Shown here: positions 15,721 through 62,280 of the stretch, piece after piece
How the letters are laid out: every line of letters starts with the position of its first letter
Position numbering within the stretch: position 1 is the first letter of the stretch
Origin: Thermoplasmatota archaeon
GTDB lineage: Archaea > Thermoplasmatota > SW-10-69-26 > JACQPN01 > JAJPHT01
DNA: 64,000 bases
Direction of reading: 5' to 3'
Assembly: GCA_035526585.1 (NCBI GenBank)
Contig: DATLCC010000027.1
Coordinates: forward strand, 2,660-66,659
Made by a program: the position numbers and the translations under genes
The notes under the pieces: generated by a model
What the model was told of the DNA's origin: nothing
The model's database searches: none
What the model saw: the letters and a program-made list of their open reading frames with translations, nothing else

Positions 15721-15868
15721 CGCGCGCTCGACCGGGGCGCTCCCTGAAAAGGCTGGTGCCAGGGCGAGGACGAGGTGGAGGACGAGGACGTGTAACCATT
15801 CGGTTACGGCCCTTGCGTTCGCGCTGCCCTCTCGCGGGCCCTCGTAGCGCCGTTTCGAGAACACCAAG

Positions 15869-24525: not shown

Positions 24526-25775
24526 TCAGATCGGGCCTCCGAGGGGCGTGAAAAGGATGCGAAGAGCGGCGCGGGGTCGCTGCGCAGCGTCCCGGCGGCG
24601 GCCTGGGAGAGGGTCGCGTCGCCGGTCAGTCTGGCGAGCTCCTCGGCCGTCATGGCCGCGACCTGCTCTAGGGCTATGTTAAACCTTTCGCTGATGCGGC
24701 GTCGCGCCATGCGCTGGGCACGCTCCAGGTCGGGCCGGACGTCCGCCGGCACGGGGACCTCGACGCCGAGGTTGTGCTCGTGGTGGGTCCAGTCCTCCGT
24801 CTCGCGCGTGGACCACCACGCGACGAGGCTCGCGACGATCACGAGGGCGAGGGTGACCAGGGGCGCGACGGCGCCGCTCGTCGCGCGGCCCAGCGCGCGG
24901 ACGGACGCGTCGTAGCCCGCCACAAGGGGCGCGGGGGAGTGCCGGGCCTCGTCCAGGACGATCGTGCCATCGCGGGGGATCAGGCTCCCGGCGAGCGCCT
25001 GGATGAAGGGCCCGTTCTCGAACTCGACGAGCTTCACCTGCGCATCCATGAAGAGGCCCGTGTCGGCGACGAGGACGAGCGTGCCCTGGCCCGCGCCGTA
25101 CTTCGTGCGCACGATGAGCGGGAACCCTTCGCCAGTGGAGGACGCCTGGTCGCCCACGTCGATCTCGCCGTTGTCGTTCACGTCGAGGTAGCTCCCGTCC
25201 GGGTACACGGCGACGCTCGACTCGGCCAGCACCTCGTGGTCGCCGACGTTCGAGAGGGGCGTGAGGGCGGTCGGGGCGTTGAACAGGATGCGGTAGTCGC
25301 GGCCATCGAGCGCGCCCGTCGTCGCGACGAGCGTCTCGTCGTCGAGGTGGTTGCGCGAGTCGACGAGCGAGGTTCCCATGAACGCGAAGCCGACCTCGCG
25401 CGCGATGTCGCTGCCGTACCCGCCCTCGTCGGCGAGGATGACGTTGCCGCCGCGCGCGAGGAAGTCGAGCACGGCCCGCGATTCGCCCTCGCTGTAGCGG
25501 CGCTCCGTGCCGATCACGACGAGGAGCGCGCGTTGCGGCTCGCGGATGTCGGCGAGCTGGTAGGGCGTCGAGAGGTACGCCTCGACCTTGCCCGCGCTCC
25601 CCGAGAGCGAGGAGAGCGCGAGGCTCGCGTCCTCGTCCCCCTCGCGGTACGCGGTGAGGTGCCGCCCGTCCGTGTTCCACACGAGGGGCGCCAGGAGCCC
25701 GACGGCGAGGAGCGCGAGGATGGTGACGAGCGTGTACGCGCGCTTCTGGGGGTCCTTGAGGAAGCCGAAGATCAT
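24522..25775 (-). CDS. DUF4350-like bitopic membrane protein (417 aa)
   Basis: The layout is an N-terminal TM (AYTLVTILALLAVGLLAPLVW), an extracytoplasmic domain (RALLVVIGTERRYSEGESRAVLDFLARGGNVILADEGGYG), a second TM (VAPLVTLALVIVASLVAWW), and a cytoplasmic tail of about 95 aa. The DUF4350 assignment rests on layout and context. A GAGGTG Shine-Dalgarno-like motif lies 5 nt upstream of the ATG. Confidence 0.7.
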   Translation of the reverse strand: MIFGFLKDPQKRAYTLVTILALLAVGLLAPLVWNTDGRHLTAYREGDEDASLALSSLSGSAGKVEAYLSTPYQLADIREPQRALLVVIGTERRYSEGESRAVLDFLARGGNVILADEGGYGSDIAREVGFAFMGTSLVDSRNHLDDETLVATTGALDGRDYRILFNAPTALTPLSNVGDHEVLAESSVAVYPDGSYLDVNDNGEIDVGDQASSTGEGFPLIVRTKYGAGQGTLVLVADTGLFMDAQVKLVEFENGPFIQALAGSLIPRDGTIVLDEARHSPAPLVAGYDASVRALGRATSGAVAPLVTLALVIVASLVAWWSTRETEDWTHHEHNLGVEVPVPADVRPDLERAQRMARRRISERFNIALEQVAAMTAEELARLTGDATLSQAAAGTLRSDPAPLFASFSRPSEARSE

Positions 25776-48900: not shown

Positions 48901-49153
48901 GATCGTTGACGCAGACCGCGGGCGCGCCGACGTCGTTCTCGAAGAACGCGGGGTCCGCGGGATCGTTCACGAAGGCCAGGATGTCCGCGCCGATGCCAAG
49001 CTGCGCGCAGCTCTGCGACGGCTTCACGTGCGGGAGCACGGGGACGTCCACGTCGGCGGGAAGGATCGCGCCCGTGTGGCTGGCGCTGGCGCTGGGGATG
49101 CCGCTCACGAGCATGAGCATCGCGAACGTGAATGCTAGGGCGCGCTGGTTCAC
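36908..49153 (-). CDS. giant envelope protein B (4081 aa): signal peptide, five MAM/jelly-roll-like modules, beta-propeller-like region, many NEW3/CARDB-like modules, C-terminal TM anchor
   Basis: The GTG start forms a GTGA overlap with the upstream stop. The signal is MNQRALAFTFAMLMLVSGIPSASAS. Five modules share L-V-S/T-P-x-x-D-L ... F-x-H-x-x ... DGG-x-x-E ... W, with core motifs near 48.55, 44.8, 43.1, 41.55 and 39.9 kb. The clearest is ASLVSPTVDLGSARTASVAFFHKYRFEDGFDGGMLEASADGGQTWKRL. Terminal CARDB-like modules are present (e.g. DRVTVKVSVANRGLSEVKDVPVHLFVDDVFVDE). The anchor is LSAILAVALVACALVTLRNGSRRQRR. Confidence 0.88.
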   Translation of the reverse strand: MNQRALAFTFAMLMLVSGIPSASASHTGAILPADVDVPVLPHVKPSQSCAQLGIGADILAFVNDPADPAFFENDVGAPAVCVNDQPIEQYQTAIVQMDLILEDLRNASREVQRQVDERTEATLPDSDYPADLVEPRTVLLDDTFDGSRFTGFGDWKVVTERGEDAAWRLAETQTPNGTRHTYRFGDEEGYERGAHQWLVSPELDLTSLKQNKTAVQDLLVIRQRAHDELDTLCNRGAQPVQPIFLCQRGNPQAQPAAMALVDAYEAAFDAAIDQLPVMQQGAFLDLTYRMNLAPTEDGVRMWVFAGDRQPDRTMLFDPDFAQLSNGYACAHEQARPVLTKTAYEAVNGTLLPGSNDAGNATCTPSLDGGSVVVLPGMVQTKAFKTGTPDSRIQSTVAFTGNTTDFVTQRLNLTPYMDERIWVLFEVKTLPNDRGVDIFTDEGRFKHHEHYGFELAKVHAEGDGYHRNVRLKDVGATFPYVVEGNAFDDGRTVRTTLPSGNQSIAAYLHNAGDFTENATFTLNVFNAANNQLLGTYGQTVTLIPDEVRTLVIPWSKALKGGVSLQEGTLYRLTGHLDVYDMNDTRLGDQLGVPEESPTAIDPNNTRVRPANAADPRLAQLGAGTLDVSQLLRVATVRTLTPVRADGERGLAIQVCSSVSGLHCEEQYAARKGETRIVLVGIRNDGNAPQDVTADLVVTLGGIVKDDLVSDGPSRLLRDMQPGETRIVQWTVTPSEPGAYTLQLGLPPGTSVGNGPAAERRMFVQRSTGLICLDTIVERECGPTYEGGLVPALRGEDVTAATMGADGTLYVATEVREAQEGVHSGQLAARDPTTGAWSVLANLSASVLNDTFAEGPETERAWGSIRAIAPASDGSFWLAGDNRTLLHLRSTGILAHVTVPADDHTDLTAALWHGDHLVVGGANGTLANVVGEEATRFTVRNAFATTDAEGDAAVGHTDYHGVVTDLLHAQNGDAVLLGEDGIVLRNAPGTTAWADAFVGEQPVAIAIHNRTLRDGTLRDGHLILVGDDVILEGIGGAAASFRTLATPVARPPLALPAPDALEAYVSAYTEDTGALVLIDQEGRLATCRACDAYERDWSYPELALPPVFGVSAVHPAKVLLGVGGSDASFLLGQGGLVLQRAYRGGYPNDEGWTTVAPLAAHDGGILQTVASTAISAASESVAFMAKPVGAGRDAANDSTEFRLFFNQSIRNASAFAPVDVRLVYLHVPVVPAVASQNVNQSGAACRPASQSPDLGVSTVCNAERVRHTVASFAAPTNLSGWDARFYDGLPPASSATLGVATPGPTTFAGLEFFVSKNARYALDDFHLMGLVAGKWVDVLEWRGPDPAYHAADVFTVDAGTFLEHDVSAAASAGDAAIDIARDQTRRWEMWPGPAFDAASVSPWHVTEQYADRPVFAANNEMYRTPALSSPTAPRLMNNLDSRLVSPIIDLRDAYDPAVSFRHSYAFRTLLDKSSPFNVHLGDGGVVEIQYLLQGQDCGSSLQATTCGWSPFYPVVPDQGYPQKTDLGFVGLATGSPNAGDTGLIAENRSYWGRMALPDEEGVISGPRRTDTYDEEQITFANVSCTTTQLNDILTKGKSIPCVPTNLSGRQVRVSFHLVTAGDRGHVAPPVGVLASAGTYNDDPPSWNASVDPEASRLSFPGEGWYITDFKVLGARKLGIDLEANNMTFRVGYDVGTIGVGPGTRVPVNVTVLNNGTFDALGYGGRLRVSQVVDRALGISVPVETITLSQQPLLEAGKSANHTLAWNVPAQEGAQYVLEFTVDPIGIDRDEDWLDNAAHIGTAAIPVPAQTVRRFDTEFLVSPENATIDITRYIPMFINNTGNVPVSGIHVERRISMIGRDAGADAPTCAHWRDLVASGRPSAIVDCREWTTARAAPAGARTALTAISDDVSPTADLFWKAPERANYLVSVSAQTDTLQSGLDRRVSAFATYLFDDVEGGVRGEAQRGAWVFGPGWNATQPGFRSTDSYAFGEPLVGRYPASANASLVSPTVDLGSARTASVAFFHKYRFEDGFDGGMLEASADGGQTWKRLTPMPDSETTAGYNASFPVQASSPLHPDRDPDTPGVYAFTSNSSRHPASVDGWVLSQFDLTGLDDITEDAVEYEAYGALELGNYAKADKQRGNAHYSESWCPGTIDADRCWLVENLSEGTRVGPGKPAPGEEKNTILWSGSTSLDDDGKRPIQNHLLEFEVDVSTVTTDQVVTADWWEYASRFNKRVVSMSRAGFGDIPGHVWPDELETAYTFASGNEIPQTYRFNLGNPEIVETRGKWYHMHADLTKEVATMRAKGHDRITMGFAYTPIAKYPSSWPADLDVAMRSRDSAIGGEYTGAGFYHDDPGFAIDALDIRATRIVRGQPLGQPTILMDETRAWSEKHVSECGTGGTPEPNYWQGATLNALGCMTSNTVFNRADPLIPAETVGRNWALVTELPSVEGGWGVVPVKDGAGHAPGVKLKTGEEPKAWWSGELPLNANSTGEAIYHKCGALNATDVFFANSVACPVPGSESRLVTPAFDLGAIAGTDARLSFGHRFAFGSLSVLGSTPLASGGVVEIQTYDSQTKTWGPWKQIYASQGGYNAVTANYSKRSAGVFRYDPPFETLVSSTGERYQALYSGSSNGWRDASYDVSEYIGKKVRVGFHIAWSEDFVNRPPLRYPDANGDGLAHGGWWITDVAIVGKVIVGEPVQLRWRAGTDANVDEGAWQFDDIGVYGSRYRRNVGLFVDETPHAFGAMPDSVVKIPVTLRNLGEDVQTNLSVRVITMDDTPLTFEAPQAPSARALAPDRFQIEGITLGPGQSKTIDLYVHTPRTFSSIDPTTTLHFEVKRYSVNSQDFLTITDNDVQGLLTRDVVFRLQTLPEVVATTTVVRDPTPTLGEPVDLEASYRNDGYAPATLSLACKAQTVTGYLPANHNLGGDTDTPIVAASYPCPLVSGATILAPKETTTLVFRVTPSANGFLRFALNGSATSGKASLNFTDRSTGVQVGVTPVVWSQTFDENRAFTENFSRSPNTKFQYLRGHDAPGSIVVGIDDNDTQINGNTYAFVCSDTDSCRAVTEPIDLHNFSASNPAFLSFYHMDRLARYDGARVVARKLLNENQPGSFSSWSPPCVLVPTGGYEGIIRQIPVQAAQGQGPQAQTPPSDPNPLFSFNPPQNRTVNESYPEFFITKDGRWEESWSLASFDLAQSCVQTTNRAKSFSLVGNTVRFEIEVFAGPFTVGPLSRGLGQGILIDDMSVSPVALSVRPMSVQRATLLDNTTKTFHVVVENRGSVADTERLEYDALNSSAPQGSVAVDSDAFVLVPGERRIVDGTITLPRDPSLLPTDFKVRLAARSLTDRNAGGLSTIDIAFAPREWAELAVQAEAPTALVQEGTEAFIPITIQNLGVVESKSVLVRIVDTWPGGSIVADRDLDPLPPYALDPDGSSRILDFAWHPETGSLGMHTLTITVDPDGHYQEYTRSNNVVTLHVPVSDLLIPDLHVANVSALSLRNAAGGVVSPAIDADVARYEVTAGELVSFELKVANNGRAGATNVDVRAFIGALSLPPKTIPYIAPGSEAIVTFNWLAQKGEHEIEFLVRSEQVELSTANNRYPGTGVTLLTVKGYEIDIQIPDVTAILEPGTTIEVPFSIRNAGNAGEDLLLVAHAPEGTHLALPREGFFLRAGETYSDKARLVLAAEAVAGEQFMSIDAVARENPMKVASGRGAMRVNASYGGSIAGGLGVGAPPGFVLPVELVNEGNSLEPWSVFVRLPAGWSADEAMPANVSVPAHGKTTLDLHLHVPPTTSPGERVLAVKATLPNGDKRDGLARTSVLPMRAAGVSVTDAVPKADHGALTMPIVVENKGNVQQPFEVLLVDAPAGIELRVSPSSFDLPPGGKAVAQLIVKPNASVEAGTYAIAGYTFFEGVSPQTQEGRANVQSLKVPIVRQDLRLAPLEFSPRAGLETGDRVTVKVSVANRGLSEVKDVPVHLFVDDVFVDEVTVPAIASGSRSDVTFNWTALAGAHTLTAVVDPYSDTVESDRADNAVSALATVGSDIAPGGVAAGRAKTPAPDLSAILAVALVACALVTLRNGSRRQRR

Positions 49154-52100
49154 TTGGATCCCTCCTTCTTCTTGCGGCCAAGGACAGCCGCGATGCCCAC
49201 CGCCGCGACGAGCGCGAGCGCGAGGCCCGCGATGCCGCCCAGGGGCACCTTCTGCGCGAACGACGCGAGCCCGGACGCATCGCCGCCGGCGAGCGCGTCG
49301 CCGGAGACGAGGGGGCCGCGAAGGACGCTTCCGTCCTCGGGGAAGCGGGCCGTGTAGCGCCCGTCCGACGCTTCAAAGGCGTAGGTGTGTGGCGCGTCGC
49401 GCTTGTGCGGCGCGAGGCGGGTCTCGTAGGTGTACGCTGCGCCCGTCTTGGCGTCGCCGCTGACCAGGGTCATGTTCTGAGGGACTCCGTCGAGGATGAC
49501 GCGCACGTACGCGGGCGCCTTGCCGCCCGGGCTCGCGTAGGTGACTGCGTAGTGGAACGTCGTGGACACCGTGCCGATCGTCGGAGTGGCGGCTCCGACG
49601 GTGAGGCGGGGCACCGCGGTGGCGGATGCGCGCAGCACGCCGTCCGTGGGGCCTTCGTTGGCGCCGTAGTCGAGGGCCGCCACCTTGTAGGTGTACAGCT
49701 TCTCGTAGGGCAGGCCGGCGTCGTCGTAGCGCGTGCCGGTGACCTCCGCGACCATGCGGAAGACGACGGCGTCCTCGCTGCGGTAGACGCGGTACGCCGC
49801 GACGGCGACGTCGTCCGTCGCCGCGTTCCACGAGAGGCGGAGCGTGCCGTTCAGGAGGTCGAGGACCGAGAGGGGCCCGACCGTGGTCGGCGCCTTCGTG
49901 TCCTGCAGGGTCGCGAAGCTGCCGTGGAGCGGCACCTCGTTCCCCGCGAGGTCGGTGACCTTCAGGTCGTACTGGTAGCTGCGGCTCGGGAGGAGCCCTT
50001 CGAAGGCGAGGTCGACCGTCGGCGCCGCGACGATGCTGGAGACCGTGACGGCGGGAGACGCCGGCGCGGTCGCGGTGCCCGTGACGAGGATGGGCTCGTT
50101 GGCGGGGACCTTCACGACGACGCGCGTGTGCTTCGTCTCCGAGATCGTGGTCGATCCCACCGTGGGCGCCACGTTGTCCACGGGGATGCTCACGTCGATG
50201 TCCTTCTCGTTCCCGGCAAGGTCCACCGCGTGGACCTTGACGGTCTTCGTGGCGGCGGCCTCGGCGGACGACACGGAGAACGTGCCCTGCCACTCGTCCG
50301 CGTTCACGATCTTCACGAGGCGCACCGATCCGACGTCGGAGAGCGCGCTCGTGTCGGCGGTGACGATGCTCACGCCGCTGAGGTCGTGCACGGTGAGGTT
50401 GAGCGTCACGGTGCCGCCCTGCTTCGCGGCGCCGGTGCCCGGCGCGTAGCGCGTCGGGTTCACGGTGATGACGGGCGCGTCGCCGTCGATCGCGACCTTC
50501 CACGTCTCCTTCGCGACGTTGCCCGCGTTGTCGAGGATGCGCAGCTCGAAGGTGCGCATGCCGGCCTCGAGCGCGTCGGGGATGTCGTAGGAGAGGCGCA
50601 GCCGCGCGTCGGGGAGCGCGTCGATGGTGAGGTTCTTCGTGACGAGCTCGCCGTCCACGTAGAGCGCGGCGGGCACGCTCGGGAAGCCCGAGAGCGCGTC
50701 GCTCGTCTCCGCGAGGAGGCGCGGCGTCGTGTCGTTCGTCGCAAGAAGCGGCGAGGAGACGATGACCGCGGGCGGCGTGTTGTCGCTCGTGAAGGGACCG
50801 ATGACCGCGCTTGCGACGTCGTGCCCGGCCTCGGCCGTGAGGCGCAGCTCGTAGGTCGTGCCGTCGAGGAAGCGCGTGCTGTTCCAGCGCAGCTCGTGCG
50901 AGTCGCCCTGGCGCGTCGCGGTCGTGACGAACGTCCACGCGCTCGTCGTCGCGTTGCGCACCTCGAGCGTGTAGCTCACGAAGTCCGCGCTGTCGAGGAG
51001 ACCGCCGCGGAAGGCGACCTTCACGAGGCCGCTCACGTTGTCGCCGCGCGCGGGGAGCTGCGGCTGCAGGAAGAGCGCGGTGATGGTCGTCGCTTCCACG
51101 ATGTCGCTCTCCTTCGAGAAGCCGCCCGTGGACGCGGAGACCGCGCGCAGCGAGTAGCGCGTGGAGGGCTGGAGCCCTTCGACCTTGAGCGCGTGCTCGA
51201 CGCTCGCGTTCGTGTCGAGCGGCGTGCGTCCGTTGAGGGCGATGGCGCTCGTGCCGAACTTCGCCATCGCGCTCGTGGGCTCGGAGGTCTTCCAGTGCAG
51301 CACGAGGCTGTTGTGCGTGACGTTCGTGACGCGGAAGCTGCCGGGGACGAAGTCGAACGCCTTCGCGTTCACGGCGAGGGGGACGAGCACGGTCGTGACG
51401 TTGCCGGCGAGGTCGGGGACGCGCACCGTGATCGTGTACGCGGCGTCCGCGAGGTTCGGCTTGTCCACGAAGAACGTCGCCTCCTGATAGATGAGGCCGT
51501 TCACGCGCACGGGGCGCACCTTGAGCGCGCTCGCGTTCTTCGCGAACGCGGACGCATCGACGGTGATCCTGCCTTCGTCGACGCCGAAGGCGTCCTCGGC
51601 GGTGAGCCGGAGCTTGACCTGGTCGCCCGGCTTCACGGCGGTCTGGCCCGGCGGAAGGATGGGCGGGAGCACGTGCACCGCGGGGCTCGCGTGGTCGAGG
51701 ATCACGCGGCCGGCGGAGACGCTGATGCTGTTGCCGGCCTTGTCCTCCACGTCGAACTGGGCGAGCCAGATGCCTTCGGGGAAGACGCTCTTGTCCACGT
51801 TCTCGCGGCTCCATCCGCCGAAGGACCACATCGTGCCCTCCTGGCCGGCAGGGCAGGCGCCCGCGGGGGTCGCCGCGCGCGACGCCTTCGTCGACTCCTG
51901 CGTCGTGGGGTCGATGTGGTAGAGCTGGAGCGTGACGGTGCCGATGCCGGTCTCGAGGTCGCGCACGCAGATGCCGAACGCGATCGGCTGGCCCGCGCGC
52001 ACGAACGTGTAGTCGGAGCCCTGGAAGCTCGAGAGGAGGCCGCCGGTGAGGGCGAGACCCGAGAAGACCGGCTGCCCCTGGTCGACGACGAGGCGGGCGT

Positions 52101-55100
52101 AGCCGTGCTGGACGTCGGCGCCGCGCGAGAGCTTCGCGTAGAAGGCGGAGCGGACGGCGTCGAGGAGCGTCGCCTCGTTCGCCGTGCCCTCGACGTTGTG
52201 GGCCCGGTCGACGGCGACCGTGAGGAAGAGGTGCACCGGGTCGCCCGAGGAGGAGACCGTGCGCGAGGTGCGGGTCGCGGGGATCGCGCGCGCGAGCGCG
52301 GGCGCGAAGTTGTCCTCCACGATGGGGGCGGGGTCGCCGGTCGCGCCAAGCGCGCTCCATCCCGTCGCGAGGTCGCCTTCTTCGCCATGGCGGTAGAAGA
52401 CGTACACCTGCGACACGCCCGAACCGGGCGCGGGGACGTCCGACCCGCTCGCGGCCGAGAGGTCCACCGACGCCCATTCGACGGGGACGCCGCCGGCGCC
52501 CGCGAGCGAGCCCGAGCCGACGTAGACGGTCGCCGTGCTTCCGGGCGTGACGCTGCCCGTCGTGAGGAACGACGCGGGCGGCGTGCGGTCGATGAGGACG
52601 GAGTCGACGCGGCTCGTCGAGAGCCCCTGCGCGTCGGTCGCGGTGACGTTCGCGAGGAAGACGCCCTCGCGGGTGAGATCGTTGCGGGTCGTGTTGTGCT
52701 GCGTCCAGCGGTCGCTCGAGCCGGAGGCGGACCAGTTCGCGAGGGGGCGGTGGCCGATCGCGTTCCAGTAGGCCGTGTCGAGCTCGCCGCCGCCGCGGCG
52801 GGGCGAGCCGTCGACGTCGCCTTCCACGTACGAGGTGTCGCGCAGCGTCTCCTTGACCTCGCCCGTCGCGGGGTCGTCGAGCGTGACGGAGACCTGCGTG
52901 GACGGGGTGGCAGGCGTGCGGAACTCGATGCGCGCCTGGTAGTCGGGGTGCCCGCCCGACTTGTAGAAGAAGAACGAGCCGGGGAGCGAGCCGAGGCCGC
53001 CCACGAGGCTGTTGAGGTTCTGCCCGTTCGTGTTGCCGAAGTTGCGCAGGACCGTCGTGACGTTCTCGCGCACGTCCGTGCGGTTGAGGACGGGGACGCC
53101 CGTCCCGCGCGTCTCCTCGATGCCGGGGACGAGGTGGTCGCCGGTCGCGGGGTTCTCGGTGTCGTTCACCGCGTCCGCGGCCGCGTTGAAGGCGCCCGAG
53201 ATGCTGTCGCCGGGGCCGGGCTGCGCGTTGTCCGTGACGAGGCCGACCGTGACGGTGAGGCGCATGTCCTTGGGCACGACGATCGTGCTGCCGTCCGAGA
53301 CGATGCCCGCGGCCTGCACGGTCGCGTCGGGCTCGTTCGCGTCGAGGTAGAAGTCCGTGAAGTCGACGTTGTCGAGGTCGCCCGCGCCGCCGCTGCCGCC
53401 CTCGCCGCCCTCGTCCTTGCAGGGGATGAGGCCGCAGAGGTGGGGGATGCCGTCCGTGACGGGCGTGACGACGTCCGTGAACGCGGAGGCGACGTCGTGG
53501 AGGTTGCCGTTCACGTCGACGCAGACGTGCACCGGGCCCGTCGGGAGGGTCTGGTTCGGGATCAGCGCCTGCTGGCCGCCGGGCGCCGTGTTCGGGCGGA
53601 AGACCCCGCCGCGCTCGAGCACCTGCACGGGGTACCAGACGAGCCAGGCGGGAAGGTTCACGCCGGGGCCGTTCGCGATGGGCTGCGGCGACGCCTGGCA
53701 GGGCTTGAGCTGGCCGCTGCGGATGTCGCCGTTGTACGTCGCGCACGTGTCCGCGCCGCCCTGCGTGCAGACGGGGGCGGCGATGGAGTCGACGACGTTG
53801 AAGATCACGTTGCCGTGGACGTTGTCGTCCACCTGCTTCGCGGTCGTGCCGAGGCTGTCGATCACGAGCTGGCGCACGGGGCCAAAGAGCGACGCGATGC
53901 CGCCCACGTCGGGAAGCGGCACGCCGTCGGTGGCGGAGCGCGACTTCGTGAACGTGCCGCTCGCGAGGTACCAGTCCTTGCCGAAGGCGTCCTTCACGTT
54001 CGTCCCGTTCGCGTACTTGACGCCGACGAGGATCTGCGTGTTGAGCGGCGCGGTCGTGATGAGCGCCGTGCGGTTGGGGAGCGCGACGTGCACGCTCTGC
54101 TTGCTCGTGACGCGCAGGTCCGCGCCCAGCGGCTCGATGCGCGAGGCGAAGGGCTCGCCGTTGATGGTCTCGACCTTGAGCTTCGCGGGCGTGCCGAACG
54201 CGTCGCCGCCGGGGTTCGTGTCGCTCTCGGTGTTGGCCGCGTTGTCGAGGTAGAACGTGAGCGCGTTGCAGAGCTGGGGCTGGTCCTGGTCGATCGCGAG
54301 GCCCTCGCACGGGAAGCTGCGGTTCCACGCGGGGATGCGCCAGCCGTTCGCGGCCTCGAAGGGGTCCTCCTCCGCGTCGAAGGAGGCGCTCCAGTTGACG
54401 TAGAGCTGCTGCGCCTCGCCGTAGGCGTACGGGGAGAACGTCGCGTTCGCGATGCCGGTGTATTCGGGGGCGAGCTCGAGGCGCTTCACGACGGGCGCGT
54501 TGTTCACGACGAGCGTGCGCGTCGCGTTGCGCGTCACGGTCTCGTTGGCCGAGTTGCCCATCTCGTCGCCAAAGAGGAGGACGGAGCGGTCGGCGAGCTG
54601 CGCGCTGAAGGTCGGGAGCGCCTTCGCGAGCTTGACGCCGTCCGAGAAGTTGCCGAGGTCGACGACGGCGCTCCAGAGCGTGACGCCGCGCTGGACGCTC
54701 GTGACGTTCGTGGACGTCGCGACGCGCTCGCGGTCGAGGAAGAAGTCGACCGAGCGCACGTCGAGCGAGCGCGTGGCGTTCTCCACGTCGGCCGAGCCGT
54801 CGGTGGGGTCCCCACCGGCGAGCGTCGCGAGCTGCTTCGTGAGCGGCGCGAGCGTGCGGTTCTCCGCGCCAGTCGAGGTGTTGACGGTCGCGAGGAAGCA
54901 GACCTTGCCCGTCGCGAAGAAGGAGCGGCCCCGCGGCTCGATGATCTCGGAGGTGCAGCCCAGGCCGTCGACGTAGCGCGTGAAGTTGAGCGTCGTGCGC
55001 GTCGTCCCGTAGAGCGTCTGCGCGAGCGCGCCCGCGGTGACGTCGCGGATCGTGGACGCGAGCACGTAGTCCGCGCCAAGGCCCGTTCCGTTCTGCGTCC

Positions 55101-58100
55101 ACGCGACGTTGTTGCCGAACGCGGGCGCCATGTGGCCAGAGGGCTGGTTCACGCCGCGGCCCTGCTCGATGAAGCCGGGCGCGCCGTCCGCCGCCGCTCG
55201 CGGCGCGAAGTGCGAGACGTAGCGGTCGTCGCCGCCGAGGTCGAGGAAGAACGCGGTCGCGCCGCCGAAGCTGTTGCCGCCGGCCGCCTGCGCGCGCGGC
55301 ACCCAGCCGTAGGATTCGTTGTCCGCGTCGTAGATGTCGTTGCCTTCGACGTCGATGAAGATCGCGGCCGAGAACGATTCGGCGGCGCCCTGGACGGCGT
55401 GCGTGCCGACGTATTCGTCGCTGCCGCCCGCGTCGAGCAGCATGCCCAGCCCGCCGTACGTGGCGTAGCCCTGCGCGCGGTCCGCCGCGACGAGCTTGCT
55501 CTCGGAGTCTCCGTTGCCGAGCATGGCGAGGACGCCGACGCCCGCGAAGCCGGCGCCCTGCGCGAGGCTGGGCTTGAGGGCCGTCACGGGCGCGACGCCG
55601 TCGTAGCGCGCGGGGAGGCCGGTCGCAAGGCCGATGCCGGCCCAGCGCGCCATCTCGTCGGAGATGTCGCTGTTGCGGATGCCCGTGTAGTTGCCGTCGC
55701 GGTTGGCCGCGCCGACGGGGAACGTGAAGTTCTCGAGGGAGGAGGTCGCGGTCTGCGCGTAGCTCGCGCCCGCGTCGGCGAAGCCGATGTAGAGGCCGAG
55801 CTCGTCGCGCGGGTACTCGCACCCGCTCGCGCCCACGTAGCCGAAGCCGACGGAGTCGGCCCAGCAGTAGGCGAGGTCGTAGATGCTGGGCGGGATCTCC
55901 GTCTGGATGAGGTCCTTGCGGATCTCGTAGACGACGTGCCCGTCCTCGCTCGCGTGGCACTTCACGTCCACCGCGCGCGGCGTGAGGCTCGCGTCGAGGC
56001 CGTCCAGCTGCATCGTGGTGAGGCCCGCCTTGGGGGCGCCGAGGTCGGTGAAGACGCACGCGTGATCCTCGCCCTGGTAGGCGATCTGCAGCTCGTCGAT
56101 GCCGCTGTGGCCCGCGGCCGTGTCGTACTGGCGGCCGAAGTGGCCGATGTCGAGGTCGACGAAGAGCATGTCGCGCGCGCGATCCTTCTCGGTCTGAGAG
56201 AGCGTCGTGCCTTCGAGCGCGAGGTAGAGGGAACGGTTGTCGTTCGCGATGCGCAGCGTCCAGTCGGACGTGTAGCGCGCGTCGCGCTGCGAGCCAAGCT
56301 CGATCGGGATGGGCTCGCCGAAGAAGTCCCACTCGGGGCCGATCGCGCCGTCGATCGCGATCGCGTCGCGGGAGCGGTCGAGCCACTGGCTGCCAAAGCT
56401 CGGGATCGCCTGCTCGAGCGCGCGGTACTCGTCGCGGCCGCCAAGGTCGGCGAGGACGCCGATGCCGAAGTAGCCGACGCCCTGCGAGAGGCCGTGGGCG
56501 ACGTCGTAGGTGGACGCGCCCGTGCCGGCGTCGAGGAGGAACGTCACGGGGAAGAGGTTGAGCGGCTGCGAAACGGCCGAGAACGGCGTCTGCGTGCCGG
56601 CGGCCGCCGCGCCGTTCTGCGGCGGGCCCTGGGCGAGGTAGTCGCGGATGAGGCCGGCCGCGCTGTAGTCGTACGAGTTGTTGCCGCCGAGGTCCACGAC
56701 GAAGGCGTACTCGTCGGAGAAGGTCGTGTGGCCGGAGTCGCCGATGGCGAGGCGCGCGGTGGGCATGTCGACCAGGAAGCCGGCGTGATCGATCGCGGAG
56801 CCGCCGCCCACGAGGCCGGCGAGGAACGCGCCGGTCGGGTCGTTGGTCTCCGTGTCGATGTGGACGCCGACGTCCGCGTAGAGGCGCGGGTTCGTCTGCC
56901 CGTTCGTGGCCGTCTCGGCGCGCGTGAGGGTCGTGTTCTGGTTGCGCGCGAGGGAGACGGAGCCCGGCTGGAGGTAGACGTCGCTGCCCGAGAGATCCAC
57001 GAGGATCGCGGCGGCGGGGCGCGGCGCGTTCGCGGGCGCAACGTCGCGCGTGGCCACGGTCTGGGAGAGCGTCCAGCCGAAGCTCCACTTGTCGTTCGCG
57101 AAGTAGCGGTCGCGGCCCTTCACGTCGAGGAGCGCGCCCACGCCACCGATGCCGCCGACGCCGTGCGTCTGCGTCGCGCTGGGGCGCGCAGCGTACGTCT
57201 CGTTCCCCTCCGTGGACGCGAGGAGGCCGAGCGCGTAAGGCGCGTTCTTCGGCGTGTCCGCGCCGCTGCCGCGGTTCATCGCGCTCGCGAAGCCGCGACC
57301 GAAGCCTTGGCTGTGGTTGCCGGCGACGAAGGTGTCGTCGCCTGCGCCCAGGTCGAGGAGGAGGCCGACGTCGCGGCGCGCGCTGCCAAGCGGCGTGTCG
57401 CTCGTCGCGTCGTTCGTGACGTTGCCGCCCTGGGGGAAGCCCGCGGTCTCGCGGTCGTCGGGGATGCCGGCGAGGTTGGCGCCCTGGCTCAGGTCGCCCG
57501 CAGCGTAGCTGTCGGTGCCCGCGAGGTCGATGAGCGCGCCGCCGAGCGCGCCCTGGCTGCCGGCGCCGGCGACGTACGCATCCGCGCCGGCGGTGTCGAC
57601 GAGGACGCCGTAGAGGGAGCCCTGCGCGTAGGAGCGCGAGGCGTTCACATACTCGTCCGCGTCGCTCGCGCCCGCCGCGAGGGCGCTGCCCGTCGCGCTC
57701 GTGAGGTCGACGTTCACGACGAGGCTCGGAGCGAGGAACGTGTCGTTGAGCTGCGGCGTGAAGTTGCCCTTCTCGTCCGGGATCGAGCGCGTGACGACGG
57801 GGAGCGCGCCGCCGGCGCTGTTCACCAGGTGGTCGCGGCCGCCCAGGTCGATGATGACGAAGTAGTCGTCCTGGTACGTCGTCTCGACGACGTCGCCGAT
57901 CGCGAGGATCCCCGCGGGGACCTGGAAGGAGAATCGGCTCTCGCTGAAGTCGCCGCCGTTCTGCAGCGTGCCGGCGCCAGGGACGCTGCCCGTCCCTTCG
58001 CCAGGCGCTGCCGTGTCGTAGGCCACGTACGCGCAGCGCTCGATCGTGCGCTCCTGGGGGCGCGCGGGGCGCGTCGTGTTCGGGTCGGTCTGCCCGAAGA

Positions 58101-61100
58101 TGGGGTTCTGGTCGCCCACCACGCGCTCGCCGGGGAAGAAGCCCAGCGGCGCGGAGCCGTTCACCATGAACTCGCCCGTGCAGGCGTAGTCGATCGAGCC
58201 GGCGTCCTGGAGCGGGAGGCGCAGGTCGACGATCTTGTCGCTTCCGCGCATCGACGTGTCGTTCTCGTCCGCCGGGTTCGAGGCGAGCGGATCCACGCGG
58301 CGACCGACGCCCGCGCCGTCGAGGCCGTTCTCCTCGATGACGGTCCAGACGGCCTGCGGGATGACGATCGCAGGGCCCGACGGGAAGCCCGCGGGGTAGG
58401 ACGTGGGAGCGTCCGGGTCGGTGGAGAGCGCTCGCTCGACGTAGTTCGGATAGCCGTCGCCGTCCGTGTCGTTCGCGATCGCCTCCGCGCGCGCGGTGGG
58501 CTGCGTGAGCGGGCTGCTGCGCTGATCCGCAGGGTCCGTGCCCGCGAGGAGCTCGACGAAGTCGGGGAACGCGTCGCGGTCGGGATCCGCGTTGCTGACC
58601 ACGACCTCCGTGTCGACGCCGAGGCCCGCGGAGAGCGCGCCGGGGCCGTCGAGCCAGACGCGGTTGTCCGCGCGCTCCGTGAGCGTCGTGAGGTTGCCGC
58701 CGGGAACGATCTCGAGGTTCACGAGCGGCGCGCCGTTCGGGGCGTGCTCGTTCTCGTAGGCGTCCTTGCCTCCGAGGTCCACGAAGACGCCGCCGAGGCC
58801 GTACCCCTGGCCCGACATCGCGGCGTACTGGTCGTCCGCGCCGTCGTCGAGCAGGATGCCGACGCCCAGCGTGAACGTGTCCGACGCGGCGCCCTGCGAG
58901 AGCTGCTGCGCATGGTAGATGTCGCGGCTGCCGGAAAGGTCCGCAAGAAGCGCGAGGCCGAGGCGGGAGTAGCCCTGGCTCATGGAGGGCGCGTCGTAGC
59001 TGTCGCCGCCGTCGGCGTCGACGAGCACCGCGACGCCGCCCACGGGCGCGGACGCCTGCGACGGGTGGCCGCGCGCCGAGCCGAGGGCCAGCTCGAGCGG
59101 GGAGAAGATGTCGTAGAACGACGTCGGGTCGTTGTAGCGGTCCGCGCCGCCCATGTCGAGGTGGAGCGAAACGGGGAGCGACGCGTTCGTGTGCACCATG
59201 GCGACGGGCATGTTGTACACGTCGTTGCCGTCGAGGTCGAGCGAGACGGTGGGCGCGCCGTAGCGCATGACGGTCTCGTAGTGGCACGTCGCCGACGCGC
59301 GCGCGGGCTCGACATGGGCCGGGACGGAGCCGCTGCTTCCGGTCGAGAAGCCACCGCCGCCGATGGTGGGGCCGGTGCTGGGCTGCGGCGGCTGCGCAGC
59401 GATCTGGTTCACGGGGCACACGAGGCGGCGCGCCTCCTCGGGCGTGTGCGTCGTCGAATCCGCGCCGGTGATCACGAGGAGCTCGAGGCTCGCCTCGCCG
59501 CCGGTCGGGTAGTGGCGGATGCCGTCGTGCACGTCGCCGGGGTCCTGGTAGCCGTAGACCATGCACTGCGCGTCGGTGCACGTGTAGACGCCGCCAGAGT
59601 GCGCATCGTCAGCATACGAAGGCATCTGGCCGGCCGCGTTCGACTCGGCGGGCGTGAAGCCGAAGCTGTCGACGGGCCAGCGCAGGCGGAGGAGGACGTC
59701 CTCGCCGCACTGGTCCACGATGCCGGGGACGATCTGGCACGCGGGCGTGTCGCCGTCGTCGATCTGGGCGCGCGCGCCTCCGAACGGGAGGAGGTGGCGC
59801 AGGAAGGAGAGGACGCCCGTCTCGACGGGCGTCGCGGACGCGGAGGCGCTCGCGTAGGCGCCCGCGCCCTGGAGGATCGCGCGCGCCTGCTCGCCCGCGA
59901 GCGTCGCGACGATGCCGGCCTGCGCGAGCGCGTCCTCGTCGACGCGCGCGGCGAGCGCGGTCGCGAGCGCGAGCTCCTCGAGCTCTGCGGCGGTGAGATC
60001 CTCGCCGTAGAGCGCGTCGAAGCCCTGCGCGCGGCGCAGCGTCTCGATCTCGCTCGCGGAAAGGTGCGCGAACGCCTGCTGCTGGAGGCGCGCGCTCTGC
60101 GCCGCGCCGCTCATGAGGACAGCGGCGGCGTCGCGCGTCGCGGGGTCGAGGCGGGCGGCGCCCTCGTCGGCGGCCGCGCGGTGCTCGGGGAGCACCGTGT
60201 AGCCCGCGAGCGTCAGCATGTCGACGTACGCGTCCGTGAAGGAGAGGACCTTGAGCTTCGGGACGGCGGGGTCGGTGCCGGTGATGATATCACCCGCGCG
60301 GACGGCGTCCACGAGCGCGCCGTGCGTCGAGGCGAGAAGCGCCGCGTGGTGCGCGGCCCAGCCGACGCGCGCGCCCGGCGTCCATTCGCCCACGCGCAGC
60401 GCATCGGGCGCGGCGCGCCAGTACAGGCCGTACTTCTCGAGCGTCGGGAGCGCGGCGGAGGTCGCGACGAGCACGTTCGCGAGCGCGGCGGACTGCGACG
60501 TGGGCGTGAGGCCCGAGGGGCTCGCGGCGGTGATGGCCTGCGCCTCGGCCATGACGAGGCGCGCGATCGCGGCCTGCAGGTCGAGCGGGAGCGCATGCGC
60601 GCGCGCGAGCACGTCGGCCTGCGCGGCGGGCGAGGGCGCCTGGCCGCTCGCGGCGAGGAGCGCGGCGAGCGCATCCTCGAACGAGGGCGCGACGCCCGCG
60701 TCCGCGAGAGGGACGTTCGCGGCGAGCGAGACGAGCTTCGCGGCGAGGAGGACCTTCTGCGCGTCGCTCGCCTTGTCGTCGGAGGCGACGATGAGAGAGA
60801 GGATGGCCTTCGTGGTCTCGTCCAGCGACGCGGTGTCGAGCCCTTCGAGCTCGGCGCGGGCCGCGTGGTCGGCGAGGGAGCCGCGCGTCGCCTCGACGGC
60901 CTCGAGCACGAGGAGCGTCGCCTCGATGCTCTTGCGCATGTCCACGAGCGACGCGAGGATCGCCATGCGGCGCGTCTCCGGCGTGCTGATCCCCTGCGCG
61001 AGGTCGCTCGCGACGTCCGGGTGCGAGTAGACCCACGCGAGCTCGTCGGGCGTGAGGAGCGCCAGCGCCTCGCGCTGCATCTGCGTCGCCGTGATGGTCG

Positions 61101-61638
61101 AAAGGAGCAGGAGCGCGACGTCGCGCTGCACGTCGAGGGGCAGCGCGTCCGCGCGCGCAAGCTGCGCCGCGAGCTCCGCGGGCGGCACGACGGAGCCCGT
61201 CGCCGCGACCCACGCGAGGATGGCCGCGCGCAGCGGCGCCTCGGGCGCGATCGCGTCGACGGGAAGAGGAGGCACCGCGAGGTCGCGGTAGCCCATGAGG
61301 TCCGCGGCGCCGAGGACCTGGCCGAGAAGGACCGAGCTGCTGGCATCAGCTCGGACCGGGGAGGCAAGCTCGTCGGCGGAGGGACGGGAGGAGGATCCGT
61401 CCGTTCCATCGGGAGCACGTGATCCGGAGGAGGGGGGCGACGTCGAGCCGCCTGGAACGACGAAGGGAAGGTCCGAGCCTCCATCGGCGGCGCTGCCGCC
61501 GTCGGAGGCGTGGCGAGCCGCCGCTGCCGCCCGCTCGTCGGCGGCCTCGAGGGCCACCTGCGCCAGGGGGAACGCGGAGACTACCAGGGTAAGAACAAGA
61601 GTCCCAGCTAGGACCTTCAGTATCGTCGCTCGCTTCAC
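49150..61638 (-). CDS. giant envelope protein A (4162 aa): signal peptide, Ala/Leu-rich helical domain, long D-x-G-G-x-D-x-Y repeat (solenoid-like) region with an inserted CBM9/DOMON-like domain, Ig-like/FN3 array, C-terminal TM anchor
   Basis: The GTG start at 61638 is preceded by GGAGG. The signal is MKRATILKVLAGTLVLTLVVSAFPLAQ. The repeat region is described under the findings. FN3-like modules are present (e.g. LRLSWNAATDDVAVAAYRVYRSEDAVVFRMVAEVTGTRYDDAGLPYEKLYTYKVAALD and FRVTNVTHNSLVLHWKTSEPTSAMAKFG). Ig-like modules are bounded by D-x-T/A-P-P/A. The anchor is GIAGLALALVAAVGIAAVLGRKKKEGSK. Confidence 0.88.
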   Translation of the reverse strand: MKRATILKVLAGTLVLTLVVSAFPLAQVALEAADERAAAAARHASDGGSAADGGSDLPFVVPGGSTSPPSSGSRAPDGTDGSSSRPSADELASPVRADASSSVLLGQVLGAADLMGYRDLAVPPLPVDAIAPEAPLRAAILAWVAATGSVVPPAELAAQLARADALPLDVQRDVALLLLSTITATQMQREALALLTPDELAWVYSHPDVASDLAQGISTPETRRMAILASLVDMRKSIEATLLVLEAVEATRGSLADHAARAELEGLDTASLDETTKAILSLIVASDDKASDAQKVLLAAKLVSLAANVPLADAGVAPSFEDALAALLAASGQAPSPAAQADVLARAHALPLDLQAAIARLVMAEAQAITAASPSGLTPTSQSAALANVLVATSAALPTLEKYGLYWRAAPDALRVGEWTPGARVGWAAHHAALLASTHGALVDAVRAGDIITGTDPAVPKLKVLSFTDAYVDMLTLAGYTVLPEHRAAADEGAARLDPATRDAAAVLMSGAAQSARLQQQAFAHLSASEIETLRRAQGFDALYGEDLTAAELEELALATALAARVDEDALAQAGIVATLAGEQARAILQGAGAYASASASATPVETGVLSFLRHLLPFGGARAQIDDGDTPACQIVPGIVDQCGEDVLLRLRWPVDSFGFTPAESNAAGQMPSYADDAHSGGVYTCTDAQCMVYGYQDPGDVHDGIRHYPTGGEASLELLVITGADSTTHTPEEARRLVCPVNQIAAQPPQPSTGPTIGGGGFSTGSSGSVPAHVEPARASATCHYETVMRYGAPTVSLDLDGNDVYNMPVAMVHTNASLPVSLHLDMGGADRYNDPTSFYDIFSPLELALGSARGHPSQASAPVGGVAVLVDADGGDSYDAPSMSQGYSRLGLALLADLSGSRDIYHAQQLSQGAASDTFTLGVGILLDDGADDQYAAMSGQGYGLGGVFVDLGGKDAYENEHAPNGAPLVNLEIVPGGNLTTLTERADNRVWLDGPGALSAGLGVDTEVVVSNADPDRDAFPDFVELLAGTDPADQRSSPLTQPTARAEAIANDTDGDGYPNYVERALSTDPDAPTSYPAGFPSGPAIVIPQAVWTVIEENGLDGAGVGRRVDPLASNPADENDTSMRGSDKIVDLRLPLQDAGSIDYACTGEFMVNGSAPLGFFPGERVVGDQNPIFGQTDPNTTRPARPQERTIERCAYVAYDTAAPGEGTGSVPGAGTLQNGGDFSESRFSFQVPAGILAIGDVVETTYQDDYFVIIDLGGRDHLVNSAGGALPVVTRSIPDEKGNFTPQLNDTFLAPSLVVNVDLTSATGSALAAGASDADEYVNASRSYAQGSLYGVLVDTAGADAYVAGAGSQGALGGALIDLAGTDSYAAGDLSQGANLAGIPDDRETAGFPQGGNVTNDATSDTPLGSARRDVGLLLDLGAGDDTFVAGNHSQGFGRGFASAMNRGSGADTPKNAPYALGLLASTEGNETYAARPSATQTHGVGGIGGVGALLDVKGRDRYFANDKWSFGWTLSQTVATRDVAPANAPRPAAAILVDLSGSDVYLQPGSVSLARNQNTTLTRAETATNGQTNPRLYADVGVHIDTETNDPTGAFLAGLVGGGSAIDHAGFLVDMPTARLAIGDSGHTTFSDEYAFVVDLGGNNSYDYSAAGLIRDYLAQGPPQNGAAAAGTQTPFSAVSQPLNLFPVTFLLDAGTGASTYDVAHGLSQGVGYFGIGVLADLGGRDEYRALEQAIPSFGSQWLDRSRDAIAIDGAIGPEWDFFGEPIPIELGSQRDARYTSDWTLRIANDNRSLYLALEGTTLSQTEKDRARDMLFVDLDIGHFGRQYDTAAGHSGIDELQIAYQGEDHACVFTDLGAPKAGLTTMQLDGLDASLTPRAVDVKCHASEDGHVVYEIRKDLIQTEIPPSIYDLAYCWADSVGFGYVGASGCEYPRDELGLYIGFADAGASYAQTATSSLENFTFPVGAANRDGNYTGIRNSDISDEMARWAGIGLATGLPARYDGVAPVTALKPSLAQGAGFAGVGVLAMLGNGDSESKLVAADRAQGYATYGGLGMLLDAGGSDEYVGTHAVQGAAESFSAAIFIDVEGNDIYDADNESYGWVPRAQAAGGNSFGGATAFFLDLGGDDRYVSHFAPRAAADGAPGFIEQGRGVNQPSGHMAPAFGNNVAWTQNGTGLGADYVLASTIRDVTAGALAQTLYGTTRTTLNFTRYVDGLGCTSEIIEPRGRSFFATGKVCFLATVNTSTGAENRTLAPLTKQLATLAGGDPTDGSADVENATRSLDVRSVDFFLDRERVATSTNVTSVQRGVTLWSAVVDLGNFSDGVKLAKALPTFSAQLADRSVLLFGDEMGNSANETVTRNATRTLVVNNAPVVKRLELAPEYTGIANATFSPYAYGEAQQLYVNWSASFDAEEDPFEAANGWRIPAWNRSFPCEGLAIDQDQPQLCNALTFYLDNAANTESDTNPGGDAFGTPAKLKVETINGEPFASRIEPLGADLRVTSKQSVHVALPNRTALITTAPLNTQILVGVKYANGTNVKDAFGKDWYLASGTFTKSRSATDGVPLPDVGGIASLFGPVRQLVIDSLGTTAKQVDDNVHGNVIFNVVDSIAAPVCTQGGADTCATYNGDIRSGQLKPCQASPQPIANGPGVNLPAWLVWYPVQVLERGGVFRPNTAPGGQQALIPNQTLPTGPVHVCVDVNGNLHDVASAFTDVVTPVTDGIPHLCGLIPCKDEGGEGGSGGAGDLDNVDFTDFYLDANEPDATVQAAGIVSDGSTIVVPKDMRLTVTVGLVTDNAQPGPGDSISGAFNAAADAVNDTENPATGDHLVPGIEETRGTGVPVLNRTDVRENVTTVLRNFGNTNGQNLNSLVGGLGSLPGSFFFYKSGGHPDYQARIEFRTPATPSTQVSVTLDDPATGEVKETLRDTSYVEGDVDGSPRRGGGELDTAYWNAIGHRPLANWSASGSSDRWTQHNTTRNDLTREGVFLANVTATDAQGLSTSRVDSVLIDRTPPASFLTTGSVTPGSTATVYVGSGSLAGAGGVPVEWASVDLSAASGSDVPAPGSGVSQVYVFYRHGEEGDLATGWSALGATGDPAPIVEDNFAPALARAIPATRTSRTVSSSGDPVHLFLTVAVDRAHNVEGTANEATLLDAVRSAFYAKLSRGADVQHGYARLVVDQGQPVFSGLALTGGLLSSFQGSDYTFVRAGQPIAFGICVRDLETGIGTVTLQLYHIDPTTQESTKASRAATPAGACPAGQEGTMWSFGGWSRENVDKSVFPEGIWLAQFDVEDKAGNSISVSAGRVILDHASPAVHVLPPILPPGQTAVKPGDQVKLRLTAEDAFGVDEGRITVDASAFAKNASALKVRPVRVNGLIYQEATFFVDKPNLADAAYTITVRVPDLAGNVTTVLVPLAVNAKAFDFVPGSFRVTNVTHNSLVLHWKTSEPTSAMAKFGTSAIALNGRTPLDTNASVEHALKVEGLQPSTRYSLRAVSASTGGFSKESDIVEATTITALFLQPQLPARGDNVSGLVKVAFRGGLLDSADFVSYTLEVRNATTSAWTFVTTATRQGDSHELRWNSTRFLDGTTYELRLTAEAGHDVASAVIGPFTSDNTPPAVIVSSPLLATNDTTPRLLAETSDALSGFPSVPAALYVDGELVTKNLTIDALPDARLRLSYDIPDALEAGMRTFELRILDNAGNVAKETWKVAIDGDAPVITVNPTRYAPGTGAAKQGGTVTLNLTVHDLSGVSIVTADTSALSDVGSVRLVKIVNADEWQGTFSVSSAEAAATKTVKVHAVDLAGNEKDIDVSIPVDNVAPTVGSTTISETKHTRVVVKVPANEPILVTGTATAPASPAVTVSSIVAAPTVDLAFEGLLPSRSYQYDLKVTDLAGNEVPLHGSFATLQDTKAPTTVGPLSVLDLLNGTLRLSWNAATDDVAVAAYRVYRSEDAVVFRMVAEVTGTRYDDAGLPYEKLYTYKVAALDYGANEGPTDGVLRASATAVPRLTVGAATPTIGTVSTTFHYAVTYASPGGKAPAYVRVILDGVPQNMTLVSGDAKTGAAYTYETRLAPHKRDAPHTYAFEASDGRYTARFPEDGSVLRGPLVSGDALAGGDASGLASFAQKVPLGGIAGLALALVAAVGIAAVLGRKKKEGSK

Positions 61639-62041: not shown

Positions 62042-62280
62042 AGGACGCCCAACGCGTGCGCCCTCGCCCCCGCCCTCGCCCCGGCCCCGTCCCCCCGTCG
62101 TGATATCAGCCCGTCGCACGTCGGCGGTTGCGCAGGAGCGCGCATCGTCGCGGCCCGCTTGCGTCGGTATCTCCTCGTCGTGACACGCGATAGGCTTAAC
62201 TCCCGTACGCCCGCTGCACGCCTCAGCGAGGAGTGCTAGAGGCTAGGCCCTCCCCGCGCGCAATAGGGAGTGCTTCCAAC

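Follow-up and report, generated by a model that had tools for sequence, protein, structure and literature searches.

A probable set of three capped beta-solenoid copies in a giant Thermoplasmatota protein, and the bacterial domain family to which they relate

What is built by a degenerate repeat that recurs about twenty times in a giant archaeal protein, and does it belong to a known family? The question arises from a 64,000-nucleotide stretch of contig DATLCC010000027.1 of a Thermoplasmatota archaeon (hereafter the window), in which a minus-strand gene encodes a protein of 4162 amino acids (aa), here called protein A. An earlier note, made from the letters of the DNA, had described an unclassified repeat in this protein and proposed that it forms one very long beta-solenoid, possibly metal-binding through its Asp ladders, interrupted by a domain resembling CBM9 or DOMON. 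We favour the view that residues ~786-2190 comprise three tandem, capped beta-solenoid copies that would serve as Ca2+-stabilised rods in a membrane-anchored surface protein, and give this reading as a whole a probability of roughly 0.6.

The repeat and its gene

Residues 800-2144 of protein A correspond to positions 55207-59241 of the window on the minus strand, and the degenerate repeat reported for exactly this interval is real. A strict regular expression ([hydrophobic]3-D-x(1-2)-G/S-x-D/N-x-Y/F/L) finds 16 matches in residues 800-2145, against 0.17 +/- 0.40 (maximum 3) in 2000 shuffles of the segment. The same expression finds none in the remaining ~2800 residues of protein A and none in nine neighbouring open reading frames (ORFs). 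A 27-position hidden Markov model (HMM) of the unit, made from 71 units taken from bacterial homologues only (consensus GVGLLIDLGGNDTYRGGSYSQGAALGK), matches 19 times, every time within residues 800-2143, in good agreement with the roughly 20 copies estimated previously. The two halves of the motif as first written fare differently, however: the D..G.D.Y half, with its Asp turn and aromatic residue, is present in 16-17 units, whereas the S-Q-G half is kept in only nine of the 17 regex-defined units.

Of the 1345 residues, no more than roughly one third belong to recognisable units; large non-repeat insertions make up the remainder, and the array is discontinuous in protein A. Across residues 800-2200 the curated family libraries used (Pfam 2025 and NCBIfam 2026) return nothing but a sub-threshold TSP3_bac match at 1057-1075. 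The repeat region has no match in the PDB sequence set at E<=10, and literature searches found no description of the repeat or of these archaeal proteins.

The gene itself is located as follows (from the ORF list and translation).

49150..61638, minus strand: gene for protein A, 4162 aa

This DNA carries three overlapping ORFs above 3400 aa in length, of which the 4162-aa frame alone shows a coding-type codon-position composition (GC content of 0.96 at third positions, GC3, and 0.51 at second positions, GC2). Given the GC3 value, we take this frame to be the real gene. The other two were rejected as Arg-rich shadows of the 70% GC coding sequence: a 4096-aa ORF at 49132-61422 (plus strand), the translation of which is Arg/Gly/Ala-rich nonsense, and a 3402-aa ORF at 49373-59581 (minus strand) that overlaps gene A.

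A bacterial domain family and its predicted fold

A homologue search recovered one full-length relative of protein A, the partial protein P0001 from a Thermoplasmatota metagenome-assembled genome (MAG; 44% identity, 100% coverage), together with 15 bacterial proteins of 780-1090 aa in which the repeat is far more regular. Each bacterial protein has 10-14 units spanning 330-420 residues, and the spacing is 26 or 27 residues in 65 of the 112 successive intervals. The spans align end to end and represent one conserved domain of ~390 aa with 13-14 coils of 26-27 aa. The coil motif is G-v-G-x-L-x-D-x-x-G-x-D-x-Y-(x5)-S-Q-G. The domain opens with an N-cap (D-T-P-x-G-x-I-x-I-G-G-x-G-x-x-x-Y-x-x-D), closes with a C-cap (N-N-x-x-W ... 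G-x-x-x-D) and has a conserved loop at its middle in the bacterial members. Among 35 diverse sequences of the domain, most coils show little or no variation at both Asp residues of the turn, at the Gly and at the Tyr.

The family is large. With the domain profile as query, at least 2,683 proteins are recovered by a word-index search (E<1e-5). When 1.84 billion cluster representatives (50%-identity clusters) are searched exhaustively, 4,502 match at E<=1e-3 and 2,698 still do so at E<=1e-30. Nearly all of the best 150 matches of the exhaustive search consist of a single stretch, i.e., one domain copy per protein. Bacterial members are about 600-1100 aa long, with the solenoid fused to PDZ or HEAT modules, and many are annotated only as 'PDZ domain-containing protein' (Brocadiales/Kuenenia, Nitrospinae, Gallionellaceae, Nitrosomonadales) or 'HEAT repeat domain-containing protein'. 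The taxa represented are anammox Planctomycetes, Nitrospinae, iron- and ammonia-oxidising Betaproteobacteria, Deltaproteobacteria and a few Thermoplasmatota; examples are P0002, P0005, P0096 and P0007, and Desulfobacteraceae are among the source taxa. Members from the word-index search have no Pfam domain across the repeat region, no family of Pfam or NCBIfam is matched by the 35 diverse sequences, and the domain profile is without a match among PDB sequences. Thus, 'unclassified' is apt for the repeat as far as Pfam, NCBIfam and PDB sequences are concerned, but not in the sense of a repeat standing alone, given the thousands of bacterial clusters that share it.

The fold was modelled with AlphaFold2 on the Kuenenia domain (P0002, residues 442-833) from a 35-sequence alignment. 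The model is confident (predicted local distance difference test score, pLDDT, 94.0; predicted template modelling score, pTM, 0.92) and all-beta, with a strand pattern that recurs in each coil; the domain is therefore modelled as a beta-solenoid, as had been supposed. Each coil has a six-residue strand (v-G-i-L-x-D), a five-residue turn (x-x-G-x-D) and three short strands around the aromatic residue and the Q-G turn. At E<=0.001 this model has no Foldseek match among PDB chains, and the matches listed are all miscellaneous beta-helices. The best match by probability and by template modelling (TM) score is 3p4g (probability 0.77; TMq 0.37-0.42, TMt 0.44-0.54), with non-significant E-values of 0.23-7. 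Tailspikes, lyases, RsaA, SufD and LpxD have TM-scores of 0.33 or lower, and a Foldseek comparison with viral structures returns only generic, non-significant beta-helix matches.

Three copies, their inserts and their helical partners

We are highly confident that the region in protein A adopts this beta-solenoid fold and belongs to the bacterial family. The domain profile (A1, hmmsearch) matches protein A with 254.4 bits (E 7.9e-80), in seven blocks across residues 798-2143, of which the best scores 92.5 bits. Two places in protein A, residues 1235/1237 and 1622/1630, match the opening of the profile (N-cap plus first unit), and the closing part of the profile (last unit plus C-cap) is matched at residues 950-1000 and 2127-2190. 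Since the N-cap recurs at 1237 and 1630 and the C-cap at 950-1000 and 2127-2190, we predict three copies, each with caps, and the single very long solenoid proposed at the outset probably does not exist as such. The region is divided as follows.

58609..59283, minus strand: solenoid copy I, residues ~786-1010, six units and C-cap ERADNRVWLDGPG...GLGVDTE
57937..58608, minus strand: linker between copies I and II, residues 1011-1234, ~220 non-repeat aa with two Asp-rich TSP3-like motifs and a Cys-containing segment
56836..57936, minus strand: solenoid copy II, residues 1235-~1601, N-cap SFQVPAGILAIGDVVETTYQDDYFVIIDLGGRD and about 7 units with indels between them
56389..56775, minus strand: solenoid copy III, N-terminal part, residues 1622-1750, N-cap and 3 units
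55570..56388, minus strand: insert in copy III, residues 1751-2023, ~270 aa, N-terminal half beta-rich; fold uncertain, at most weakly CBM9-like
55069..55569, minus strand: solenoid copy III, C-terminal part, residues 2024-2190, 4 units and C-cap FGNNVAWTQNGTGLGAD

Copy I contains the strongest block (domain HMM 92.5 bits, E 1.2e-30, residues 798-965), with a C-cap HMM match of 13.2 bits at 950-1000. In copy II the domain HMM matches residues 1235-1392, 1404-1520 and 1542-1563, and the N-cap HMM scores 18.6 bits at 1237-1269. For copy III, residues 1622-1750 map onto profile positions 10-137 (N-cap HMM 16.2 bits at 1630-1656), and the C-terminal part is matched at 2024-2111 and 2085-2143 (C-cap HMM 16.1 bits at 2127-2190). 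Protein A thus has no single uninterrupted 13-14-coil copy, but three with about 4-7 recognisable coils each, the third of them split. Copy III was also modelled with AlphaFold2 (residues 1615-2200), with N- and C-terminal fragments of the bacterial domain aligned on either side of the insert. Its coils are predicted with confidence and reach pLDDT 84-94 (by 10-residue blocks, 78-87 in the N-terminal part and 88-94 in the C-terminal part).

The linker between copies I and II contains the TSP3-like motifs DPDRDAFPDFVELLAGTDPAD and DTDGDGYPNYVERALSTDPDAP (the second also given as DTDGDGYPNYVERALSTDPDAPTSYPAGFP), which are conserved in P0001 and in the protein of a second archaeal locus, L006 (below). 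The Pfam match to TSP3_bac (PF18884) at residues 1057-1075 has an E-value of 5e-4 and 20.2 bits, below the 25-bit cutoff.

The likeness of the copy III insert to CBM9 or DOMON finds no support in sequence, and a weak one in predicted structure. No Pfam family matches the insert at E<=10, CBM9 (PF06452) and DOMON (PF03351) included, and a two-sequence profile of the insert has no match among PDB sequences. Its 'I-D-G-x-x-x-x-x-W' start resembles that of CBM9. In a Foldseek search with the copy III model, CBM9 chains are the matches of highest probability (1i82_A 0.77, 7nwo 0.72), at E ~0.04 and TM ~0.3 and in a region of low confidence (pLDDT of the insert 25-72); for 1i82_A the values are E 0.038 and TMt 0.32. 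A beta-sandwich-like prediction of low confidence recalls CBM9 (1i82, 7nwo), to which the insert has no Pfam or PDB sequence match. P0001, 39% identical over the insert, is the sole insert homologue found. A word-index homologue search with the insert alone (residues 1744-2023) returned nothing and also missed P0001, so the lack of other homologues is weak evidence, as the index overlooked a true relative.

Upstream of the solenoids, protein A carries a second element of the bacterial proteins. An HMM of this alpha-helical module of ~190 aa was made from 254 bacterial segments lying directly upstream of the solenoid, and matches protein A with 26.6 bits in total, against at most 2.1 bits in 200 shuffles.

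59848..61377, minus strand: three helical-module copies, residues 88-267, 316-374 and 483-597 (18.1, -1.6 and 20.1 bits, respectively)

The copy at 316-374 is weak. Because module and solenoid both occur three times, the first ~2190 residues resemble the bacterial pairing of helical module and solenoid in threefold form. The modules are grouped N-terminally (HHH...SSS), neither interleaved with the solenoids nor adjoining each of them.

Archaeal relatives are few. In genome scans, which covered one genome per GTDB species, a single protein as query found nothing, and the only loci recovered with a two-sequence alignment are L005 (43% identity) and L006 (26%), each in a Thermoplasmatota MAG. 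The L006 protein (L006:8318-17812, 3164 aa) has solenoid blocks at residues 576-805, 934-1082 and 1135-1286 + 1610-1758, a TSP3-like linker and a C-terminal anchor, and P0001 likewise has three blocks, the third of them split. The third block of the L006 protein is interrupted by ~320 aa (residues ~1287-1609; L006 12176-13144) that are dissimilar in sequence to the insert of protein A and have no Pfam match. With two inserts so unlike each other, the third-block position seems to tolerate unrelated insertions. The L006 insert (…WTETIDDSQIRVAGPNG…TLSGSTLTYATNLDDSPTIIMDRGG…) recalls the blades of TolB/PD40-type propellers, as an impression from reading its sequence. The family is overwhelmingly bacterial and its archaeal members very few, which suggests that the domain was transferred into an archaeal lineage and then tripled.

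Set beside the bacterial PDZ/HEAT proteins, protein A shares the 26-27-aa coil, the N-cap, the C-cap and the helical module. The bacterial proteins have one uninterrupted domain of 13-14 coils, whereas protein A has three shortened, insertion-rich copies within 4162 aa and no PDZ or HEAT module in a Pfam scan. P0001 and the proteins of L005 and L006, all uncharacterised predictions from MAGs, resemble protein A in having three blocks, a TSP3-like linker, a split third block, an Ig-like C-terminal region and a transmembrane anchor. The fold class is unsurprising, as beta-solenoids are common in giant surface proteins. What is new is the family, a conserved ~390-aa domain with no Pfam or NCBIfam entry, no solved structure and no close structural neighbour. 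A family model would annotate thousands of proteins now labelled 'PDZ/HEAT domain-containing' or hypothetical, and the archaeal tripled form with its insertion hot spot is an example of a repeat scaffold reused for domain display. It also provides a way into the cell envelopes of uncultured Thermoplasmatota, which have hardly been studied.

Predicted role, rival readings and gene neighbourhood

In order from the N-terminus, protein A has a signal-peptide-like segment, the three helical modules, the three solenoid domains, an Ig-like/fn3 region and a transmembrane anchor. Its N-terminus is hydrophobic and signal-like in the translation, fn3 and Big_13 (bacterial Ig-like) match in Pfam at residues 3279-3519, and 51 N-x-S/T sequons are present. 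The C-terminus, likewise read from the translation, ends as follows.

49177..49239, minus strand: C-terminal hydrophobic anchor GGIAGLALALVAAVGIAAVLG, followed by RKKKEGSK

None of the NCBIfam sorting-signal models matches this C-terminus. From the signal-like N-terminus, the sequons, the fn3/Big domains, the anchor and the giant CARDB/NPCBM_assoc proteins of the same operon (below), we infer an extracellular location.

We envisage that protein A would be exported by the Sec route, with the coils folding outside the cell. The stacked Asp-x-x-Gly-x-Asp turns would then bind Ca2+ between successive coils, much as in RTX beta-rolls and the MpAFP beta-helix, and the resulting domains could act as rigid, rod-like spacer segments in a membrane-anchored envelope or adhesion protein. 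In the archaeal proteins the solenoids are shortened and have received loops and whole domains, copy III possibly becoming a scaffold that shows a variable module (weakly CBM9-like here, an unrelated one of ~320 aa in L006). The invariance of the Asp and Gly residues, the likeness to RTX turns, the 3p4g match and the neighbouring TSP3-like motifs point to a stacked cation site, and we put the chance that these turns bind Ca2+ at about even. A role in scaffolding or adhesion is put forward tentatively.

The two Ca2+-dependent systems invoked also differ from the present domain. MpAFP region IV (3p4g), a Ca2+-dependent antifreeze protein with a beta-helical fold, is likewise a regular beta-solenoid in which each coil has a single acidic turn rich in Gly and Asp, but the identity is 12-13%, there is no sequence homology, the Foldseek E-values are not significant, and its coil has 19 residues as compared with 26-27 here. 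RTX proteins (PF00353) are extracellular and share the G-x-D-x-(aromatic or large hydrophobic) turn-strand motif, and Ca2+-driven folding is a plausible shared principle. They are built from 9-residue repeats, two turns to an 18-residue coil, in a two-sided beta-roll, and PF00353 does not match the present domain.

Several other explanations of the repeat can be weighed against three capped copies. That the motif arose by chance, or from the composition of a high-GC sequence rich in D, G and A, is already refuted: Ala, Gly and Asp are indeed abundant in protein A, but 16 matches stand against 0.17 expected, the independent HMM finds 19 units and the profile E-value is 8e-80. One continuous solenoid of ~1350 aa with loops would account for a single motif confined to a single span, and an end-to-end stacking of copies would be compatible with it; we nevertheless consider it quite unlikely in view of the N-cap and first unit that recur, the last unit and C-cap that also occur twice, the ~220 residues outside the repeat, TSP3-like motifs among them, that part copy I from copy II, and the closed 13-14-coil domain of the bacterial relatives. 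It would be very surprising if the region were a divergent right-handed beta-helix of the pectate-lyase or PbH1 kind, the latter with a unit of ~22 residues, be it a polysaccharide-cleaving lyase or hydrolase or a binding domain like that of NosD. The non-significant Foldseek list does include tailspikes, a GH87 glucanase, a rhamnogalacturonan lyase and a pectate lyase, but with E>1 and TM-scores of 0.15-0.33, about 0.2 for tailspikes and lyases; neither protein A nor the 35 members match Beta_helix (PF13229), NosD or Pectate_lyase in Pfam at E<=1, and conservation falls on Asp, Gly and Tyr in the turns rather than on an Asn ladder or a catalytic groove. The supposition that this is no PbH1 or pectate-lyase repeat thus stands.

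Membership of the RTX or hemolysin-type Ca2+-binding beta-rolls is just as hard to credit. The ..G-G-N-D-T-Y.. turn bears what we take to be a resemblance to the RTX nonapeptide G-G-x-G-N-D-x-L-x, and one of the 35 members matches RtxA_C at E 0.056. However, the period of 26-27 residues with one acidic turn per coil does not fit, and no HemolysinCabind match is found at E<=1 in the 35 domain sequences. A further proposal concerns function, with the solenoids as modules of a Ca2+ self-assembling S-layer lattice, like those of RsaA, and not as a stalk or adhesin scaffold. It draws on the giant, sequon-rich, membrane-anchored nature of the protein, on an operon of similar proteins and on the presence of RsaA among the Foldseek matches. 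We regard it as unlikely, as the RsaA matches have a TM-score of 0.13 and a probability of 0.02, the bacterial members are PDZ/HEAT fusions of 600-1000 aa, unlike S-layer proteins in appearance, and 4162 aa far exceeds the archaeal S-layer proteins known to us.

Three capped copies remain our preferred explanation, and the following points weigh against it or parts of it. Two of the caps, the N-terminal one of copy I and the C-terminal one of copy II (..LYADVGVHIDTE), were recognised by eye only, and the three copies may still stack upon one another once the protein has folded. The model of copy III, the only part of the window that was modelled, is poor overall (mean pLDDT 59.6). The absence of HemolysinCabind matches noted above also tells against Ca2+ binding, and the scaffold or adhesion role is drawn from architecture only. 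Finally, the gene neighbourhoods of two bacterial members (L001 and L003) have nothing informative in common except TPR proteins encoded close by, and neither includes a MoxR operon.

Such a MoxR gene is found in the window. Protein A heads a string of minus-strand genes, the ends of which overlap or abut, and further giant proteins are encoded within 17781-49153 (minus strand). The features of the string and of the genes further downstream are listed below.

minus strand: protein B, 4081 aa, CARDB x3 and NPCBM_assoc
minus strand: protein C, 1423 aa, NPCBM_assoc and CARDB
minus strand: protein D, 2255 aa, TSP3_bac and C-terminal DUF4129
24522-25775, minus strand: DUF4350 protein
23467-24525, minus strand: MoxR-type AAA_3 ATPase
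22212-23459, minus strand: DUF58 protein
17781-21545, minus strand: protein E, 1254 aa, CARDB and Big_13
15043-15867, minus strand: ABC ATPase, further downstream
12015-14915, minus strand: MacB/FtsX-type permease, 966 aa, further downstream

The A-E string has the look of a single envelope-protein operon that includes a MoxR/DUF58 module. The solenoid motif is absent from the neighbouring operon proteins, and a search of public assemblies for the window's MoxR protein gave no match. In bifidobacteria, MoxR-DUF58-transglutaminase modules stand beside FN3 surface proteins in the PFNA cluster (PMC8430577). A more speculative proposal, which we consider doubtful as a whole, is that an undescribed, widespread family of Ca2+-binding solenoids was acquired by Thermoplasmatota and tripled with its helical partner, that the third copy became a display scaffold whose insertion site takes up unrelated binding domains, and that the co-encoded MoxR, DUF58, DUF4350 and DUF4129 proteins might help to assemble or remodel the giant envelope proteins so formed.

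The ABC ATPase and the permease may serve in export or processing of envelope components. Two more ORFs adjoin the operon, one of 535 aa at 62236-63843 (minus strand) and one of 351 aa at 16368-17423 (minus strand); neither has a Pfam match, and both stand out by coding-type composition or length.

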